Virus record (IMG/VR): IMGVR_UViG_3300035142_000030
Span: 12,722 to 76,721 of that record
Source of the DNA: a virus
Reading direction: 5' to 3' (one strand)
Length of the DNA stretch: 64,000 nucleotides
The stretch's first letter is position 1. The number at the start of each line of letters is the position of its first letter. The notes beneath the pieces were generated by a model, which saw only the letters and a program-made list of their open reading frames with translations, was not told the DNA's origin and did no database searches. This document shows, piece by piece, positions 20,037 to 64,000 of the stretch. Position numbers and translations under genes: made by a program.

Positions 20037-20390
20037 ATGAAAACACTAATATTATTTCTATTATTATTTCCTATCTATTCTTATTCGCAACAGGTAGGAG
20101 AAAAACTAACCCAAAAAGAATCATTAGCTCTTGTAGAAAAAGATCATTGTAACAAGTACTATTATACCTCAGAAGATAGTATCATTACTATTAGGACAAG
20201 AAAGTCAGATGATCTTATATGGGATATAGACTATCAAGTAAAGAGGACAAGTAAACTTTCATGGGTAACACAATACACTCAAATAGGAAGAAACGTATTC
20301 TATGATGAAGGAGATTATTATTTTGTATTTATTATAGGAGAATATTATTTAATACAGATTAGGAATGCGGAGAAAGTGTCGTCCTTATAA
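20037..20390 (+). CDS. Secreted hypothetical protein
   Basis: Signal peptide MKTLILFLLLFPIYSYS-Q. Confidence 0.6.
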   Translation: MKTLILFLLLFPIYSYSQQVGEKLTQKESLALVEKDHCNKYYYTSEDSIITIRTRKSDDLIWDIDYQVKRTSKLSWVTQYTQIGRNVFYDEGDYYFVFIIGEYYLIQIRNAEKVSSL

Positions 20391-59769: not shown

Positions 59770-60215
59770 CAAATATAAGGAAAGCAAAGCAATCAGATAA
59801 AAGATGGTTCTTAAAAACCTATAATCCTAAAGAAAACAGGTATTGGTTAGAAGATAATCAAATCCTTAGAAAAGAATGGTATAAATCATTAATTACCAGA
59901 GTATCTTCTTTATGGTTTATAATCTATAATGAAGAAGGAGAAAGAGTAGGATTATTCAATACATTTTTTAAAGGAAATAAATATCTTTTTGGGATTATCA
60001 TATCTAAACAACACAGAAGAAAAGGATATGCTAGAGATACTATAAAAGATTTCCTTAAAATAACTGATAAGAATAAAATGGATGTATACTTAGAATGTTT
60101 CTCTGATAATCCTGCTATGAAGCTATATAAAAAATTAGGTTTTCAACAAACAAACACATTTAAAACAGTTAGAGGACGAAAGTTTGTTGAAATGAAACGA
60201 AAATCGTGTGAATAA
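59766..60215 (+). CDS. GNAT acetyltransferase
   Basis: HRRKGYA, NPAMKLYKKLGF. Confidence 0.85.
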   Translation: MTNIRKAKQSDKRWFLKTYNPKENRYWLEDNQILRKEWYKSLITRVSSLWFIIYNEEGERVGLFNTFFKGNKYLFGIIISKQHRRKGYARDTIKDFLKITDKNKMDVYLECFSDNPAMKLYKKLGFQQTNTFKTVRGRKFVEMKRKSCE

Positions 60216-60254
60216 CTATTTATTTATACCCAAAACGGATAAAGAAATTTTTAT

Positions 60255-60365
60255 TATATTTGTGGCATGATTAAGTATCTCGTAAATTATATTGTTTTTA
60301 TTTTGCCGAAAGGCTAATTATATAACCAGGTGGAACTACGAGATACTTTATCCATCTGGTTTTTC
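60255..60365 (+). promoter_or_regulatory. Promoter plus leader ORF and terminator/antiterminator
   Basis: TATATTTG; leader 60267-60317; stem AACCAGGTGGA/TCCATCTGGTT plus T-run; 12-bp IR 60273-60284/60337-60348. Confidence 0.5.
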
Positions 60366-60404
60366 CTATGTATATGGACGAGATATCCAAACCACCAGCA
60401 TATG

Positions 60405-60640
60405 CGTAGTAAGATTGACCACTGGGGGGATTTGCACACAATAGGTCAAACGTGGCACTAAGAGACGAGCGGATATGTGTGACGGCTTGCTGTAAAGTCG
60501 GAAGTAGGTCTCAACCCAAAGGACGCAGCGTTTCACTTTGGGCACTATGCCGACGGGGCTCGTTTATACGAAGCAAGATTGGTATACGTGAGTTGAAAAC
60601 CTTACAACACCTGTAGGGATTAACTTCTCACGTTCACTAA
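60405..60640 (+). ncRNA. Putative structured RNA upstream of nuclease gene
   Basis: GC-richer island with nested helices (TTGACC/GGTCAA; ACGAGC/GCTCGT; GTCGG/CCGAC; CCCAAAG/CTTTGGG; ACGTGAG/CTCACGT). Confidence 0.45.
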
Positions 60641-60709
60641 CCTCAAAAGCTGATTACCAAAGCAATTAGTTAAATATATAATACTTAATATATAAATAAT
60701 AACTAAATA

Positions 60710-61183
60710 ATGGAACATATTAATAGACCTTATGTATACCTTATTACAGATTGTAGATATTATAAAATAGGGAAAAGTTTAAATCCATTTAAAAGACTAA
60801 AGCAATTGAGAACAGCAAATCCAAATTGCGAACTACTTGGATATTCTAAAAAATATACAGAAAAGACTTTGCATAAAAGATATAAGAAGTGGAAAGTTTC
60901 TGGCGAGTGGTATAATTTGCCTCAATATGAAGTGGAGCATATATTATTAGTTATGCGTTCACCTAAAAAGAAAAGAAGTCACGTAGAGTTTAAGAAAATG
61001 GAGATGTCTAATTATGTTGTGCCATATGGAGAATATAAAGGCAGAAAGTTAAATACAATGAATAGCGTTGACGAAATAAGGTATCTTAGAAAACAAATAA
61101 GAGAATTGCCAAGATTATGTGAAGAGTGGGTAATGTTTACAAGGTGGAATAAAGAATGGATTATTAATAATCCTGTTAAATAA
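60710..61183 (+). CDS. GIY-YIG superfamily (T5orf172-like) nuclease
   Basis: YVYLI...YKIGKS..P.KRLKQL.T.NP...EK.LH.....GEWY. Confidence 0.8.
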   Translation: MEHINRPYVYLITDCRYYKIGKSLNPFKRLKQLRTANPNCELLGYSKKYTEKTLHKRYKKWKVSGEWYNLPQYEVEHILLVMRSPKKKRSHVEFKKMEMSNYVVPYGEYKGRKLNTMNSVDEIRYLRKQIRELPRLCEEWVMFTRWNKEWIINNPVK

Positions 61184-61229
61184 TTTGTTTTCAATAAAAA
61201 ATATTCTTATCTCTACAACCAAATATGAA

Positions 61230-61281
61230 AGCGTCTGGCTTACATTCAGAAGATCGGTGGTTTGAATCCATCAGCAGGTAC
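61230..61281 (+). pseudogene. 5'-truncated tRNA-Val(TAC)
   Basis: TCTGG-CTTACAT-TCAGA anticodon arm and T-arm present; 5' acceptor and D-arm missing. Confidence 0.5.
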
Positions 61282-61321
61282 TATTTTTTTTAATATATTT
61301 GTTAATTTAAAATATTTTTAT

Positions 61322-61459
61322 TATATTTGCAGTATGAAAAGATTTTGGTGTTTATATAGTTATTCGTTTTTGCTTTTCGCTATACAGGCGAGAGAATAGA
61401 ATAATTGTATATATACTATAATTATTGTTTCCTCGCCAAAAGCGGGGATTTGTTGTTTT
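61322..61459 (+). promoter_or_regulatory. Promoter plus leader peptide (61334-61399) attenuator before tRNA cluster
   Basis: MKRFWCLYSYSFLLFAIQARE; terminator TCCTCGC/GCGGGGA plus T-rich tail; GGCGAG can pair with CTCGCC. Confidence 0.6.
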
Positions 61460-61461
61460 AT

Positions 61462-61536
61462 GGCTCTGTGGTGGACGCGGCAATACACAACGGTTTTAAG
61501 CACCGTCTTTCGCGGGTTGGAGTCCCGCCAGAGCTA
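61462..61536 (+). tRNA. tRNA-Leu(TAA), short variable loop
   Basis: GGCTCTG/CAGAGCT acceptor; ACGGT-TTTAAGC-ACCGT. Confidence 0.75.
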
Positions 61537-61540
61537 CTAA

Positions 61541-61615
61541 GCCCATATGGCGGACGCGGGAATACGCGATAGTCTTAGGAACTATTTTTCACAGGTTCGA
61601 GTCCTGTTATGGGCA
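61541..61615 (+). tRNA. tRNA-Leu(TAG), short variable loop
   Basis: GCCCATA/TATGGGC acceptor; ATAGT-CTTAGGA-ACTAT; GGTTCGAGTCC. Confidence 0.85.
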
Positions 61616-61619
61616 CAAT

Positions 61620-61703
61620 GGAAGGATCGACAGCGGCCTGTCAGGGAGTCTTGAAAACTCTTATGCGATGTAACAGTTGGGGGATCGACACCTCATCCTT
61701 CCG
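61620..61703 (+). tRNA. tRNA-Ser(TGA)
   Basis: GGAAGGA/TCCTTCC acceptor, G discriminator, CTTGAAA loop, long variable region. Confidence 0.7.
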
Positions 61704-61709
61704 CAATTA

Positions 61710-61776
61710 GGGGTAGAACGGGTGGAAGCCTGGTCTGTAAAACCATTGCTCTGAAGTTCGATACTTCACTACCCCA
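61710..61776 (+). tRNA. tRNA-Tyr(GTA), atypical (short D arm)
   Basis: GGGGTAG/CTACCCC acceptor; TGGT-CTGTAAA-ACCA. Confidence 0.55.
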
Positions 61777-61780
61777 CAAA

Positions 61781-61865
61781 GGAAGATTGACTGAAAGGTA
61801 AGGTGCTGGTTTGCTAAACCAAGGCTAGGGTAATACCTAAACAGGCTCGATACCTGTATCTTCCG
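61781..61865 (+). tRNA. tRNA-Ser(GCT)
   Basis: GGAAGAT/ATCTTCC acceptor; TTGCTAA loop; long variable arm. Confidence 0.8.
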
Positions 61866-61870
61866 CAAAT

Positions 61871-61938
61871 AGATGTGAGCCAAGGTGGTGATGTAGCCTC
61901 CAAAACTACAGAAGAGAGTTCGATCCTCGTACGGAGTA
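61871..61938 (+). tRNA. tRNA-Trp(CCA), degenerate acceptor (possible pseudogene)
   Basis: GTAG-C-CTCCAAA-A-CTAC anticodon arm; GAG-TTCGATC-CTC T-arm. Confidence 0.45.
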
Positions 61939-61943
61939 CAAAT

Positions 61944-62014
61944 TGCCCTATAGAATAATGGTAGTTCATCTGACTTTGGATCAGATAGTTCCAGTTCAAA
62001 TCTGGATAGGGCAT
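61944..62014 (+). tRNA. tRNA-Gln(TTG)
   Basis: TGCCCTA/TAGGGCA acceptor; TCTGA-CTTTGGA-TCAGA. Confidence 0.85.
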
Positions 62015-62056
62015 CAAAATAATTTTTATTAATTTTTATTATTAAATAATTTTTTG

Positions 62057-62219
62057 TATATTTGTAAAATACTTTAAAGGATTATGATTTCATTAGGTAG
62101 AAAAAATATGGTTAATATTGATCGTGGAGCAACGCTAAACGAACAGGAGGATTTATTTGTCTAAATGAATTAAATAAAAAGACTAAGAGCCCTCCAAGAA
62201 ATTGAGAGGGCTCTTTTAT
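62057..62219 (+). promoter_or_regulatory. Promoter plus leader peptide (62084-62164) and terminator before second tRNA pair
   Basis: TATATTTG; MISLGRKNMVNIDRGATLNEQEDLFV; AAGAGCCCTC/GAGGGCTCTT plus T-run; GGAGG/CCTCC alternative pairing. Confidence 0.55.
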
Positions 62220-62292
62220 TGGCGCATAGTATAATTGGTAAGTACGCAAGGCTGATGCCCCTGAAATCTAGGTTCAATCCCTAGTGTGCCAA
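62220..62292 (+). tRNA. tRNA with GAT anticodon (Ile), atypical body
   Basis: TGGCGCA/TGTGCCA acceptor; CTGATGC loop; CTAGG-TTCAATC-CCTAG. Confidence 0.6.
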
Positions 62293-62298
62293 CAAAAC

Positions 62299-62372
62299 AG
62301 CGGGGTGGATTGGAGAGGCTTCCAGCTCTGTCTCATAAGCAGAACGACACGGGTTCGACTCTCGTCACGACC
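62299..62372 (+). tRNA. tRNA-Met(CAT), degenerate 3' acceptor
   Basis: TCTGT-CTCATAA-GCAGA; GGTTCGACTC; acceptor pairs poorly. Confidence 0.5.
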
Positions 62373-62687
62373 TCTTATCATTTAATTAACATTCAGTTAA
62401 TAATTTTCTTCTATACATTTATTTACTATATTTGAGCTATGAAAATAGCGATTATAATACTAGTATTAATGATTATCTCTTCAGGAGAAGAGAGAAAAAA
62501 AAAACTGTTGTAGACACAGAACTATTCAAGAAAGAACTTAATGAATCTATTTTAGAAGGATTTGGAGATATGCCTAAAGAATTTCTGTATTTTGTTAAAT
62601 AATAGTATATTGTTTTTTTTATTATATTTGCCATAATTAAATTTATTATTAACTAAGTTCAAACGGACGTAAAAATTCAAAAGAATT

Positions 62688-63134
62688 ATGGCACTTGTGA
62701 CTGTAACCACCACTTATCGAAACGATAAGGTATCGGCAGAAACACTTTTATTAAACACAGCAAAGATCGTCGATTTTTATAGTAAAGATGTTTCAAACAC
62801 AATTTTTTACTATAAAGAATTAGAAGATAGACGAGAAAAAACTATTAAGTACGAAACAGCATTAACTAATGCACAATTCGAAGCATTGTTCGATGAGGCG
62901 TTGTATGTAACTAGAATTGCATTACCCGTATTAGAGATTTATTCTCCATCGAAAAGGACATTTGCAGAAACGCTGAATGTAGCAGCAGGAGATATTATTA
63001 AGGCAAAAGACATTGATACAACTACTTCTTACTTATGGTTTGCTCGTGGAGCATTCCAGAAAGTAAAAGTAAAAGTAAATGCTACAATTGCAGAAATTGA
63101 AAGCGCTTCTAGCACATCAGATTCTATTTTATAG
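62688..63134 (+). CDS. Hypothetical (probably virion-associated) protein with internal duplication
   Basis: Two similar halves (AETLLLNTAKIV / AETLNVAAGDII); TATATTTG at 62623; terminator ~63158-63190. Confidence 0.55.
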   Translation: MALVTVTTTYRNDKVSAETLLLNTAKIVDFYSKDVSNTIFYYKELEDRREKTIKYETALTNAQFEALFDEALYVTRIALPVLEIYSPSKRTFAETLNVAAGDIIKAKDIDTTTSYLWFARGAFQKVKVKVNATIAEIESASSTSDSIL

Positions 63135-63213
63135 CAGCAAACTAATTTAATTAATTAAGGGACTAGACATTAATTTGTTTAGTCCTTTTGTTGTAAATAA
63201 AACTAACCAAACG

Positions 63214-63888
63214 ATGAATATACAAGAGATAGACGGAAGCGTATTTAAGTATAATCCTACAAGCAAGAATGCTCTTAAACAACTTCAAAAGGATTATCCT
63301 GAATTTGGAGAGTCACATTTGAAGGCAGGGTTAGGAAGCAATTCTATAGAGTATGACTTAGAACCTTTTAGGGAGAATGTTCTTAAATACGTTATTCTCT
63401 TGTATGATAAAAATTCACCTTTATGGAGCACAATACAAGATTTTAATCATAGAAAGATAACAGCCTTACAAATGGCAGGGTTTAAAGTTCAACCTAATGG
63501 GCAATTCTCTGTAGAAGTACAACAAGGAATAATTATGGGAAAGAACTCTGTAGTAAATAATATGATTGTGAGATACGTGTTCTTATTTAACAATCCTAAG
63601 TTTGTTATGCTTGTAGGATTGTTACAGGTATATATAAATCTATTTACAAAAATACAAAGTTCTAGCCCTAAAAAAGAAGAGCTTCTAATGTTTAAGCAGA
63701 CAGCAGAAGATATTGATAAACTAACTGCTGATATATTTGGGGGAAAAGAAAACCAAGAGTTAGAGAATACACTATACGAAGTTCTAAACATGAATAAGAT
63801 GTTGTTTAGACCAGAACATGTAGCAGAAAGAATAGCTAACGGAGAAGAACCAACTAACGCTAAGCCTTATGAACAAAGCGCAAGCTAA
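63214..63888 (+). CDS. Hypothetical protein, possibly terminase small subunit
   Basis: YVILLYDKNSPLW; overlaps the next gene; position after tRNAs. Confidence 0.4.
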   Translation: MNIQEIDGSVFKYNPTSKNALKQLQKDYPEFGESHLKAGLGSNSIEYDLEPFRENVLKYVILLYDKNSPLWSTIQDFNHRKITALQMAGFKVQPNGQFSVEVQQGIIMGKNSVVNNMIVRYVFLFNNPKFVMLVGLLQVYINLFTKIQSSSPKKEELLMFKQTAEDIDKLTADIFGGKENQELENTLYEVLNMNKMLFRPEHVAERIANGEEPTNAKPYEQSAS

Positions 63889-64000
63889 AGTAAAATATCA
63901 TGGTACAGAATATAGAAAATATGTAGATAAATATCAAGATGTAGACGAATACCAATGGTTAAATACAGATGATATAGACCTACATCCTATACGCACAAAG
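63869..64000 (+). CDS. 5' part of next gene (possibly terminase large subunit), truncated by window
   Basis: ATG 63869, MNKAQAKVKYHG..., open to the window end. Confidence 0.35.
   Translation, partial: MNKAQAKVKYHGTEYRKYVDKYQDVDEYQWLNTDDIDLHPIRTK

Follow-up and report, generated by a model that had tools for sequence, protein, structure and literature searches.

A putative leader-peptide attenuator between a promoter and the tRNA block of a phage genome, with units of the same design in cultured phages

The DNA examined here is a stretch of 64,000 nucleotides (referred to as the window) that forms the final 64 kb of a 76.7-kb phage contig, IMG/VR record IMGVR_UViG_3300035142_000030, which originates from a wetland metagenome, has a G+C content of 31%, and carries a 127-bp terminal repeat. 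Near the end of the window, a promoter, a mini-open reading frame (ORF), and a terminator hairpin are situated directly ahead of a block of tRNA genes. We consider it likely that this unit is a ribosome-mediated, i.e. leader-peptide, transcription attenuator gating a phage tRNA operon, based upon its sequence, its predicted RNA folds, and its resemblance to units found in other phages. The features of the unit and its tRNA block are as follows:

61294-61301, plus strand: upstream copy of TATATTTG, with its TTTG (61298-61301) 20 nt before the -7 box
61322-61329, plus strand: TATATTTG, -7 box of a Bacteroidota-type promoter (TAnnTTTG), 4 nt ahead of the ATG
61334-61399, plus strand: leader ORF of 21 codons plus TAG, encoding the peptide MKRFWCLYSYSFLLFAIQARE
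61341-61423, plus strand: long imperfect hairpin (regions 1:2), the 5' part of the ORF pairing with its 3' part plus spacer
61343-61378, plus strand: putative regulatory run, codons 4-15 (F W C L Y S Y S F L L F)
61366-61392, plus strand: predicted antiterminator segments, with GGCGAG (61387-61392) complementary to CUCGCC (61432-61437)
61430-61461, plus strand: intrinsic terminator, a 7-bp hairpin (61430-61448) and U-rich tail, adjoining the first tRNA
61462-61537, plus strand: tRNA-Leu(UAA), 76 nt, without long variable arm (ARAGORN default, Rfam)
61541-61616, plus strand: tRNA-Leu(UAG), 76 nt, without long variable arm (ARAGORN default, Rfam)
61620-61704, plus strand: tRNA-Ser(UGA) (ARAGORN default, Rfam)
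61710-61777, plus strand: tRNA-Tyr(GUA), 68 nt, reduced D arm, without long variable arm (Rfam 30.3 bits; ARAGORN 85% thresholds)
61781-61866, plus strand: tRNA-Ser(GCU) (Rfam 41.5 bits; ARAGORN 85% thresholds)
61866-61943, plus strand: degenerate tRNA-Trp-like remnant with a CCA anticodon arm and T arm, lacking the acceptor stem
61944-62015, plus strand: tRNA-Gln(UUG), the last gene of the block (ARAGORN default, Rfam)

An initial annotation of this DNA had proposed a TATATTTG promoter at 61322 and, behind it, a 21-codon ORF containing TGG, TTA, TAT, AGT, TAT, TCG, TTG, CTT, and CAG codons; the promoter is located precisely there and the ORF contains exactly those codons. The octamer is also enriched, with 30 exact copies in the window versus the 11.3 expected, and the copy upstream of the unit can be viewed either as the source of a -33 element, supplied by its TTTG, or as a tandem promoter. 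Because the ATG lies only 4 nt past the -7 box, the transcript should be leaderless. The same spacing recurs elsewhere in the window at promoters 20025, 60255, and 62427, which precede a 117-aa ORF at 20037 and mini-ORFs at 60267 and 62439, respectively, so leaderless starts seem to be normal for this phage. Within the leader, codons 4-15 are all of the UNN type, AGU and CUU excepted, while in the peptide a KR head and a polar tail flank a hydrophobic core of 14 residues. The peptide matches no PHROGs family and no relatives of it were found.

The initial annotation also listed seven downstream tRNAs, six of which are supported by ARAGORN or Rfam (both Leu, both Ser, Tyr, and Gln), whereas the supposed tRNA-Trp is a remnant. 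The remnant is called as a tRNA by neither program, its fold is unstable (z=+0.6), and in alignments it resembles phage tRNA-Trp genes solely in the anticodon arm, which has a CUCCAAA loop, and the T arm. A tRNA-Thr(ggt) called over 61855-61941 at ARAGORN 70% thresholds was dismissed as noise. Bacterial Leu and Tyr tRNAs normally possess a long variable arm; in this block, both tRNA-Leu genes and the tRNA-Tyr gene lack it and have reduced D arms. A 76-nt Leu(tag) is likewise carried by Cellulophaga phage phi4:1. These odd shapes may bear on recognition by synthetases or tRNA-targeting nucleases.

The leader RNA has a minimum free energy of -38.5 kcal/mol (z=-5.2), which was equaled or bettered by 0 of 200 shuffles. 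In the predicted fold of the untranslated leader, an apical hairpin (61375-61393) within the long hairpin hides the GGCGAG box. The long hairpin contains many G-U pairs and is strand specific (-27.8 kcal/mol on the plus strand versus -8.0 kcal/mol on the minus strand), which indicates that it is a feature of the RNA; the poor minus-strand fold also led us to reject its interpretation as a DNA palindrome. Further downstream, five of the seven pairs in the terminator hairpin are G-C, and the hairpin is followed by TTTGTTGTTT. A terminator scan picks up the hairpin together with its U-rich tail, and the hairpin ends 13 nt ahead of tRNA-Leu. The interval 61400-61461 contains neither a TAnnTTTG nor a sigma-70-like site between the terminator and the tRNA. 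The hairpin and its T-rich tail, as well as the alternative pairing of GGCGAG (61387) with the CTCGCC arm, had both been noted in the initial annotation, and both are borne out: the box-arm duplex has an energy of -12.6 kcal/mol compared to a shuffle mean of -4.9 (P=0.002, i.e. better than 99.8% of shuffles). A second part of the predicted antiterminator, GUUUUUGCUUUU (61366-61377), pairs with 61438-61449, which comprises the terminator loop and 3' arm.

The effect of a translating ribosome was simulated by masking all RNA upstream of a point 12 nt beyond the A-site codon and determining the minimum-energy fold of the remainder. Without a ribosome, or when the A-site codon was any of 1-3 or 15-22, this fold contained the terminator; for A-site codons 4-14, the antiterminator took its place. 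A ribosome-dependent switch of this kind arose in 4 of 250 shuffles (mononucleotide shuffling of the upstream 96 nt). The predicted folds follow a trp-type logic, with 1:2 and 3:4 pairing in the untranslated leader, 2:3 pairing when the ribosome is stalled, and 3:4 pairing when it is at the stop codon. Sequence and modelling combined yield a short 5' ORF, cognate codons, a terminator without a later promoter, and a ribosome-dependent antiterminator, all of which are criteria for an attenuator. The proposal that an attenuator with a GGCGAG:CTCGCC antiterminator is placed between the promoter and the tRNAs holds in silico, and the comparison with other phages described below backs it strongly. 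None of the curated leader or attenuator models in Rfam (Trp, His, Leu, and Thr leaders, Bacteroid-trp, T-box) was matched in a cmscan search of 60000-64000 at E<=1, which returned the tRNA matches and two chance-level matches elsewhere, but nothing more.

The codon content of the leader parallels the tRNAs behind it. Seven of the eight codons from 7 to 14 are read by five verified downstream tRNAs, namely Leu(taa), Tyr, Ser(gct), Ser(tga), and Leu(tag), and every Leu and Ser codon family that has a tRNA in the block (two plus two) occurs in the leader. It had been claimed that each downstream tRNA has a codon in the leader, allowing wobble. This stands for the six verified classes, while the partner of the Trp codon is a remnant and the Gln codon is not among the sensing ones. 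The initial annotation had also asked for a match better than that of random AT-rich ORFs. Among the 234 small ORFs of this genome (18-24 codons), the leader itself is the only one that covers all 7 codon classes. With Trp left out, 1.7% of the same ORFs cover all 6 classes, and 1.5% of small ORFs contain a stretch of 8 codons with 7 or more cognate ones. These in-window figures are post hoc and are to be read as suggestive.

Covariation between leader codons and tRNA content in related phages was the check that the initial annotation had itself suggested, and it was carried out on other phages. The same unit architecture exists in the Cellulophaga phages phi4:1, phi10:1, Calle, and phi40:1 and in the Tenacibaculum phage Gundel. 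We compared nine units from cultured phages, i.e. three from phi4:1, one from phi10:1, three from Calle, and two from Gundel, or eleven when including the two units of the window (the second of which is described below). Each of the nine has a TAnnTTTG promoter, an ORF of 20-32 codons, and a hairpin plus U tract adjoining the first tRNA; the promoter-to-ATG spacing is 4 nt in six of them and 12-22 nt in the other three. Their leaders contain a run of 10-16 codons that begins at about codon 4-7 and names the amino acids of the block. In phi4:1, for example, the leader core QRLHLQELEQP precedes a Pro-Glu-Gln-His-Leu-Leu-Arg tRNA block, TKTGITVIDKTKGARA precedes Ala-Lys-Ile-Gly-Met-Asp-Thr-Val-Arg-Met, and NYCTYNNSNWSFSY precedes Tyr-Ser-Ser-Asn-Trp-Phe, while in phi10:1 the core WSYSCFSYSF precedes Tyr-Trp-Phe-Ser-Cys. 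Summed over the nine units, the block behind each leader supplies a tRNA for 106 of the 126 core residues, compared to a mean of 41.5 obtained by permuting the tRNA sets between leaders (P=2e-5); adding the two units of the window brings the total to 115 of 154 (P<1e-5). The correspondence extends to the level of codon families, as 48 codons of six-codon amino acids are matched by a tRNA for their own family, 7 by the sister family only, and 9 by none. Leader codons do, therefore, co-vary with tRNA content.

The position of the putative antiterminator box is conserved as well. The best complement of the terminator 5' arm falls within ORF codons 16-26 in all eleven units, ending 0-14 nt before the stop codon in nine of them and reaching P<=0.024 in nine. 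The box P value of the first window unit (0.002) was the best among nine units, with both Gundel units, which were computed separately, being lower still. Furthermore, a blind scan of IMG/VR with the common promoter/start motif yielded 80 loci, in which all 18-32 codon ORFs with tRNAs within 160 nt downstream listed the amino acids of those tRNAs. The mini-ORFs of the cultured phages are annotated as hypothetical proteins at best, such as gp075 and gp076 of phi4:1. The design is not universal among Bacteroidota phages, because the lone tRNA of Bacteroides phage SJC03 lies inside an operon without it, and such leaders or terminators were not seen at the tRNA array of crAss001.

Some additional features were encountered at these loci. 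In the first Calle unit (L124:1460-1620), the first tRNA after the terminator is Ala(UGC)-like and missing from the deposited annotation, and Ala is present in the leader. Similarly, the first tRNA of the first Gundel unit (L127:762-830) is Tyr(GUA)-like (Rfam 27.8 bits) and unannotated, and Tyr is present in the leader. In a distant relative (L034:400-580), a GC hairpin plus U tract ends 6 nt before a tRNA-Met and TATCTTTG is located ~60 nt upstream, with no leader ORF. An HNH endonuclease lies between one of the Gundel leaders and its tRNAs.

When the units of the window are placed among those of the other phages, the first (unit 1) exhibits all of the features of what we term 'checklist' units of flavobacterial phages, a class defined in this analysis: a promoter, an ORF, a matched run, a G-rich box, and a terminator adjoining the tRNA. 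It shares with the Cellulophaga and Gundel units the promoter type, the 4-nt spacing to the ATG, the ORF length, the position of the matched run, the box before the stop codon, and a distance of 55-100 nt from stop codon to tRNA. Its 19-nt promoter and start, TATATTTGCAGTATGAAAA, is common to the second Gundel unit, and its promoter and start are also common to unit C of phi4:1. The core LYSYS is likewise present in the first Gundel unit, with the TCN and AGY serine codons in reversed order, as would be expected if selection acts on codon type rather than on sequence. Unlike those of the Cellulophaga and Gundel units, the unit 1 block is devoid of Phe, Cys, and Trp tRNAs and has two Leu and one Gln instead, while its terminator is 7 bp in length compared to 9-17 bp. 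The UNN-type tRNA sets of other phages fit its leader slightly better (0.57-0.64) than its own set does (0.50). For this reason, unit 1 looks like a UNN-row unit in whose block the Phe, Cys, and Trp tRNAs were lost and two Leu and one Gln are present, and its codon match looks partial and inherited from a fuller UNN-type block.

The second unit of the window lies downstream of the first tRNA block:

62057-62373, plus strand: second unit, with a promoter at 62057, a 26-codon ORF (62084-62164), and a strong 13-bp terminator (62185-62215)
62220-62293, plus strand: tRNA-Ile(GAU), adjoined by the terminator
62302-62373, plus strand: weak tRNA(CAU)

The core of its ORF, LGRKNMVNIDRGAT, is of the ANN/GNN type and matches the tRNA sets of phi4:1 unit B and the first Calle unit at 0.79, but its own set at 0.14. 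At no ribosome position in the simulation did its terminator give way, and its box does not reach significance (P=0.159). Given the mismatch between leader and tRNAs, the lack of a switch, and the insignificant box, unit 2 is clearly decayed.

The large terminase (TerL) gene begins at 63869 and runs on at the genome start, and its product is ~25% identical to the TerLs of the Cellulophaga phi46:3 group, the Flavobacterium 'elemo' phages, and Tenacibaculum phage Gundel. This likeness makes it very probable that the host is a member of the Flavobacteriaceae. Closer TerL relatives (57-84% identity) are all metagenome sequences, none of which has tRNAs near TerL; the tRNA cluster was absent from 112 loci of such relatives (JGI metagenomes plus IMG/VR) and from five whole IMG/VR records. 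Orthologous leaders for covariation analysis or alignment are, therefore, lacking. In a syntenic contig with a 75% identical TerL (L005), the stretch corresponding to window positions 60330-62990, which holds a homing-endonuclease-like ORF and the tRNA island, instead encodes a zinc-ribbon ORF and an RNA ligase (PF09414, 75 bits; L005:6574-7668). This replacement indicates that the tRNA island is accessory. The ORF preceding the island in the window is the following:

60710-61183: homing-endonuclease-like ORF of the T5orf172/MUG113 type

Searches for near or distant DNA matches to region 61200-62700 in the phage collection found none, a related-locus search of IMG/VR with the 224-aa neighbor protein and with TerL alone gave no close relative, and an exact scan of IMG/VR for the terminator sequence returned just two chance matches in unrelated contigs without tRNAs. 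In a look-up of sequencing runs, the phage was listed for its likely source DNA sample and for no RNA run.

From these features, a working model can be assembled. Host RNA polymerase would initiate at the TAnnTTTG promoter, producing a transcript that starts at or next to the AUG, and a ribosome would load on the leaderless 21-codon ORF. If the leader is left untranslated, the 1:2 hairpin would lock the GGCGAG box and the 3:4 terminator would form, stopping transcription ahead of tRNA-Leu. A ribosome that reaches the stop codon unhindered would cover the box, which ends at the stop codon, and the terminator would re-form. Slowing at any of codons 4-14 (Phe Trp Cys Leu Tyr Ser Tyr Ser Phe Leu Leu) would keep region 1 open and the box free, whereupon GGCGAG and the U-rich segment 61366-61377 could pair with both arms of the terminator, and polymerase would read through into Leu(UAA), Leu(UAG), Ser(UGA), Tyr, Ser(GCU), and Gln. 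The net effect would be an 'any-of-these-codons' shortage sensor with negative feedback, as the accumulation of phage tRNAs would restore fast reading of the leader and turn the block off. Probably, then, the phage makes the tRNAs of the block only when the matching codons are read slowly. Translation of the ORF, stalling, termination at the hairpin, and the rise of read-through upon shortage are all steps that we infer. The unit is part of a family of units of this design in Flavobacteriaceae phages that is roughly sorted by codon row.

Several observations weigh against this model. In unit 1, the block provides tRNAs for 7 of the 14 core residues, as opposed to 10-14 of 14 in the Cellulophaga and Gundel units, leaving the codons for Phe (four copies), Cys, and Trp orphaned. 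Of the matches that do exist, those of TCG, CAG, and CTT require wobble, with CTT read by Leu(tag) via U:U, and the Gln codon (codon 18) lies beyond the sensing window. The leader is without orthologues, the closest TerL relatives having no tRNA island. Most of the terminators in the other phages are 11-17 bp in length and were never displaced in the minimum-energy simulation; in such strong-terminator units, the choice must be kinetic, being made before the 3' arm is transcribed, or else the simple model is incomplete. Lastly, the L034 hairpin adjoins its tRNA without any leader, and unit 2 of the window is similarly without a working switch.

Some of these same observations could be explained if unit 1 were a relic, i.e. 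the descendant of a fuller UNN-type attenuator that is no longer useful, with the tRNAs being expressed through constitutive leakage across a weak 7-bp terminator. The orphaned Phe, Trp, and Cys codons, the degenerate Trp gene, the clear decay of the adjacent unit 2 (own-set match of 0.14, no switch), and the location of the island beside a homing-endonuclease-like gene and its absence from close relatives are all compatible with such a history. However, the promoter, ORF, box, and terminator of unit 1 are intact, its box P value is strong (0.002), it is among the few units in which a switch is visible at the minimum-energy level, and the orphan codons would still be able to sense host tRNAs. 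A relic is, in our estimation, improbable. It is also conceivable that the ORF is incidental and the transcript is a structured 5' leader RNA with another role, such as an RNase III/RNase P platform or a put-like terminator-resistance RNA. While the hairpin is long, stable, and strand specific, and hairpins adjoin the first tRNA in the absence of a leader ORF (L034) or of a visible switch, a role of this type leaves unexplained why ORF composition tracks the unit's own tRNA set over at least 11 units and why the complement of the terminator arm is always found shortly before the stop codon. No Rfam match was obtained for such an RNA either, and we judge this explanation to be quite improbable.

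A further alternative concerns the peptide itself. Given its KR head, hydrophobic core, and polar tail, the ORF might be a separate gene for a small hydrophobic peptide, either a membrane peptide or one resembling a type I toxin, that carries a terminator of its own. Genes of this kind encode a conserved hydrophobic peptide and in most cases have an antisense RNA as partner. The agreement between codons and tRNAs would then be a by-product of T-rich hydrophobic sequence, and indeed 3.8% of hydrophobic gene windows reach at least 6 classes; a second leaderless hydrophobic mini-ORF is also present at 62439. Yet the leaders of other block types are hydrophilic (QRLHLQELEQP, TKTGITVIDKTKGA) with an unchanged architecture, the peptide has no PHROGs family match, and the tRNAs would be left without a promoter. 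The cross-phage data favor codon content over peptide sequence, and we judge a peptide gene to be highly improbable. A leader-peptide attenuator remains the interpretation that we prefer.

Accepting an attenuator, its trigger is a separate matter. The initial annotation envisioned that the phage senses tRNA depletion of the kind that host anticodon nucleases cause during infection, but simple supply-and-demand feedback explains the design equally well. In a counter-defense scenario, the leader would detect the loss of host tRNAs to defense nucleases and turn on nuclease-resistant tRNAs, including the Leu and Tyr tRNAs without long variable arms, and the locus would constitute an exchangeable anti-defense slot holding either an RNA ligase (repair) or tRNAs (replacement). 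The sister phage's RNA ligase and the unusual shapes of the tRNAs hint in this direction but do no more than that, and we regard the scenario as doubtful.

The putative mechanism has clear precedents. Enterobacterial attenuators include multivalent leaders, such as those of thr (Thr plus Ile) and ilvGMEDA (Ile, Leu, and Val), in addition to trpL, hisL, leuL, and pheL. Like these, unit 1 has a short ORF just past the start site, a run of regulatory codons, and several amino acids represented in a single leader. It likewise combines a 1:2 hairpin and a 3:4 terminator with a 2:3 antiterminator in which the 5' arm of the terminator takes part, and its stop codon is so positioned that a ribosome reaching it would mask region 2. 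In contrast to the enterobacterial leaders, the phage-encoded unit targets tRNA genes rather than biosynthetic enzymes, and up to 9 different amino acids are represented, mostly by 1-3 codons each and without tandem repeats of any one. Its mRNA is leaderless and driven by a Bacteroidota TAnnTTTG promoter, and it has no sequence relation to them or Rfam leader match. The E. coli pheST attenuator (pheM leader) and the T-box riboswitches of Firmicutes are cases in which tRNA status controls genes of the translation apparatus, and they similarly tie the expression of decoding machinery to codon or tRNA service via a choice between terminator and antiterminator. The pheM leader differs in sensing one amino acid and in targeting a synthetase, whereas T-boxes bind uncharged tRNA directly with no need for a ribosome, and no T-box or specifier structure was detected in 60000-64000 by cmscan. 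To our knowledge, the control of phage tRNA genes has hardly been addressed so far, and full-text searching of the literature found no account of such control. The logic is that of classical attenuation, while its use on phage tRNA genes with a checklist of many amino acids is a variant that we could not find described.

The purpose of phage tRNA genes has been disputed for decades, with codon compensation on one side and escape from tRNA-targeting defenses on the other (PMC10264068). If the proposed mechanism is correct, phages would gauge how fast each codon is decoded and replenish just those tRNAs that are scarce, which would amount to feedback on the translation apparatus itself and to classic attenuation acting on a new type of target. 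It would also provide an annotation rule for dozens of unexplained mini-ORFs as well as a reason for the arrangement of phage tRNA arrays in codon-row blocks, and such leaders could serve as compact, programmable codon-specific sensors. As the same design is present in cultured systems, namely Cellulophaga baltica with phi4:1, phi10:1, and phi38:1/Calle and Tenacibaculum with Gundel, it is directly testable. For Cellulophaga phage phi38:1, RNA-seq data from infections are already available (PMC5335546).

Several minor observations were made around the two units. Just upstream of the unit 1 promoter is a partial tRNA-like sequence:

61217-61272, plus strand: partial tRNA-like sequence with UAC in its anticodon loop (Rfam 22.3 bits, below the cut-off)

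It is followed by a run of eight T residues (the stretch extends to 61291) and is probably a relic of an earlier tRNA block, although it may alternatively be the terminator of the upstream gene. Downstream of unit 2, the third promoter (62427) and its ATG four nucleotides later open a hydrophobic ORF of 24 codons at 62439 (MKIAIIILVLMII...), which ends after a run of ten A residues. A one-base shift in this run would fuse the ORF to a 56-codon frame (62432-62602). It could be a case of homopolymer error, programmed slippage, or a leader minus its tRNA block. With regard to TerL, four relatives (P0006, P0063, P0087, and P0120) are 150-400 residues longer and contain intein/homing-endonuclease Pfam domains (PF05203, PF05204, and PF14528), which the TerL of the window does not. 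Finally, a non-coding stretch of higher G+C content (60267-60700) lies directly behind the TATATTTG promoter at 60255 and ahead of the homing-endonuclease-like ORF, and it is kept in two relatives (L027, 4108-4324; L005, 6200-6428). RNAalifold applied to these three sequences predicted 39 pairs, including 14 that show compensatory double changes, and no Rfam family was matched. The stretch is probably an undescribed structured phage RNA.

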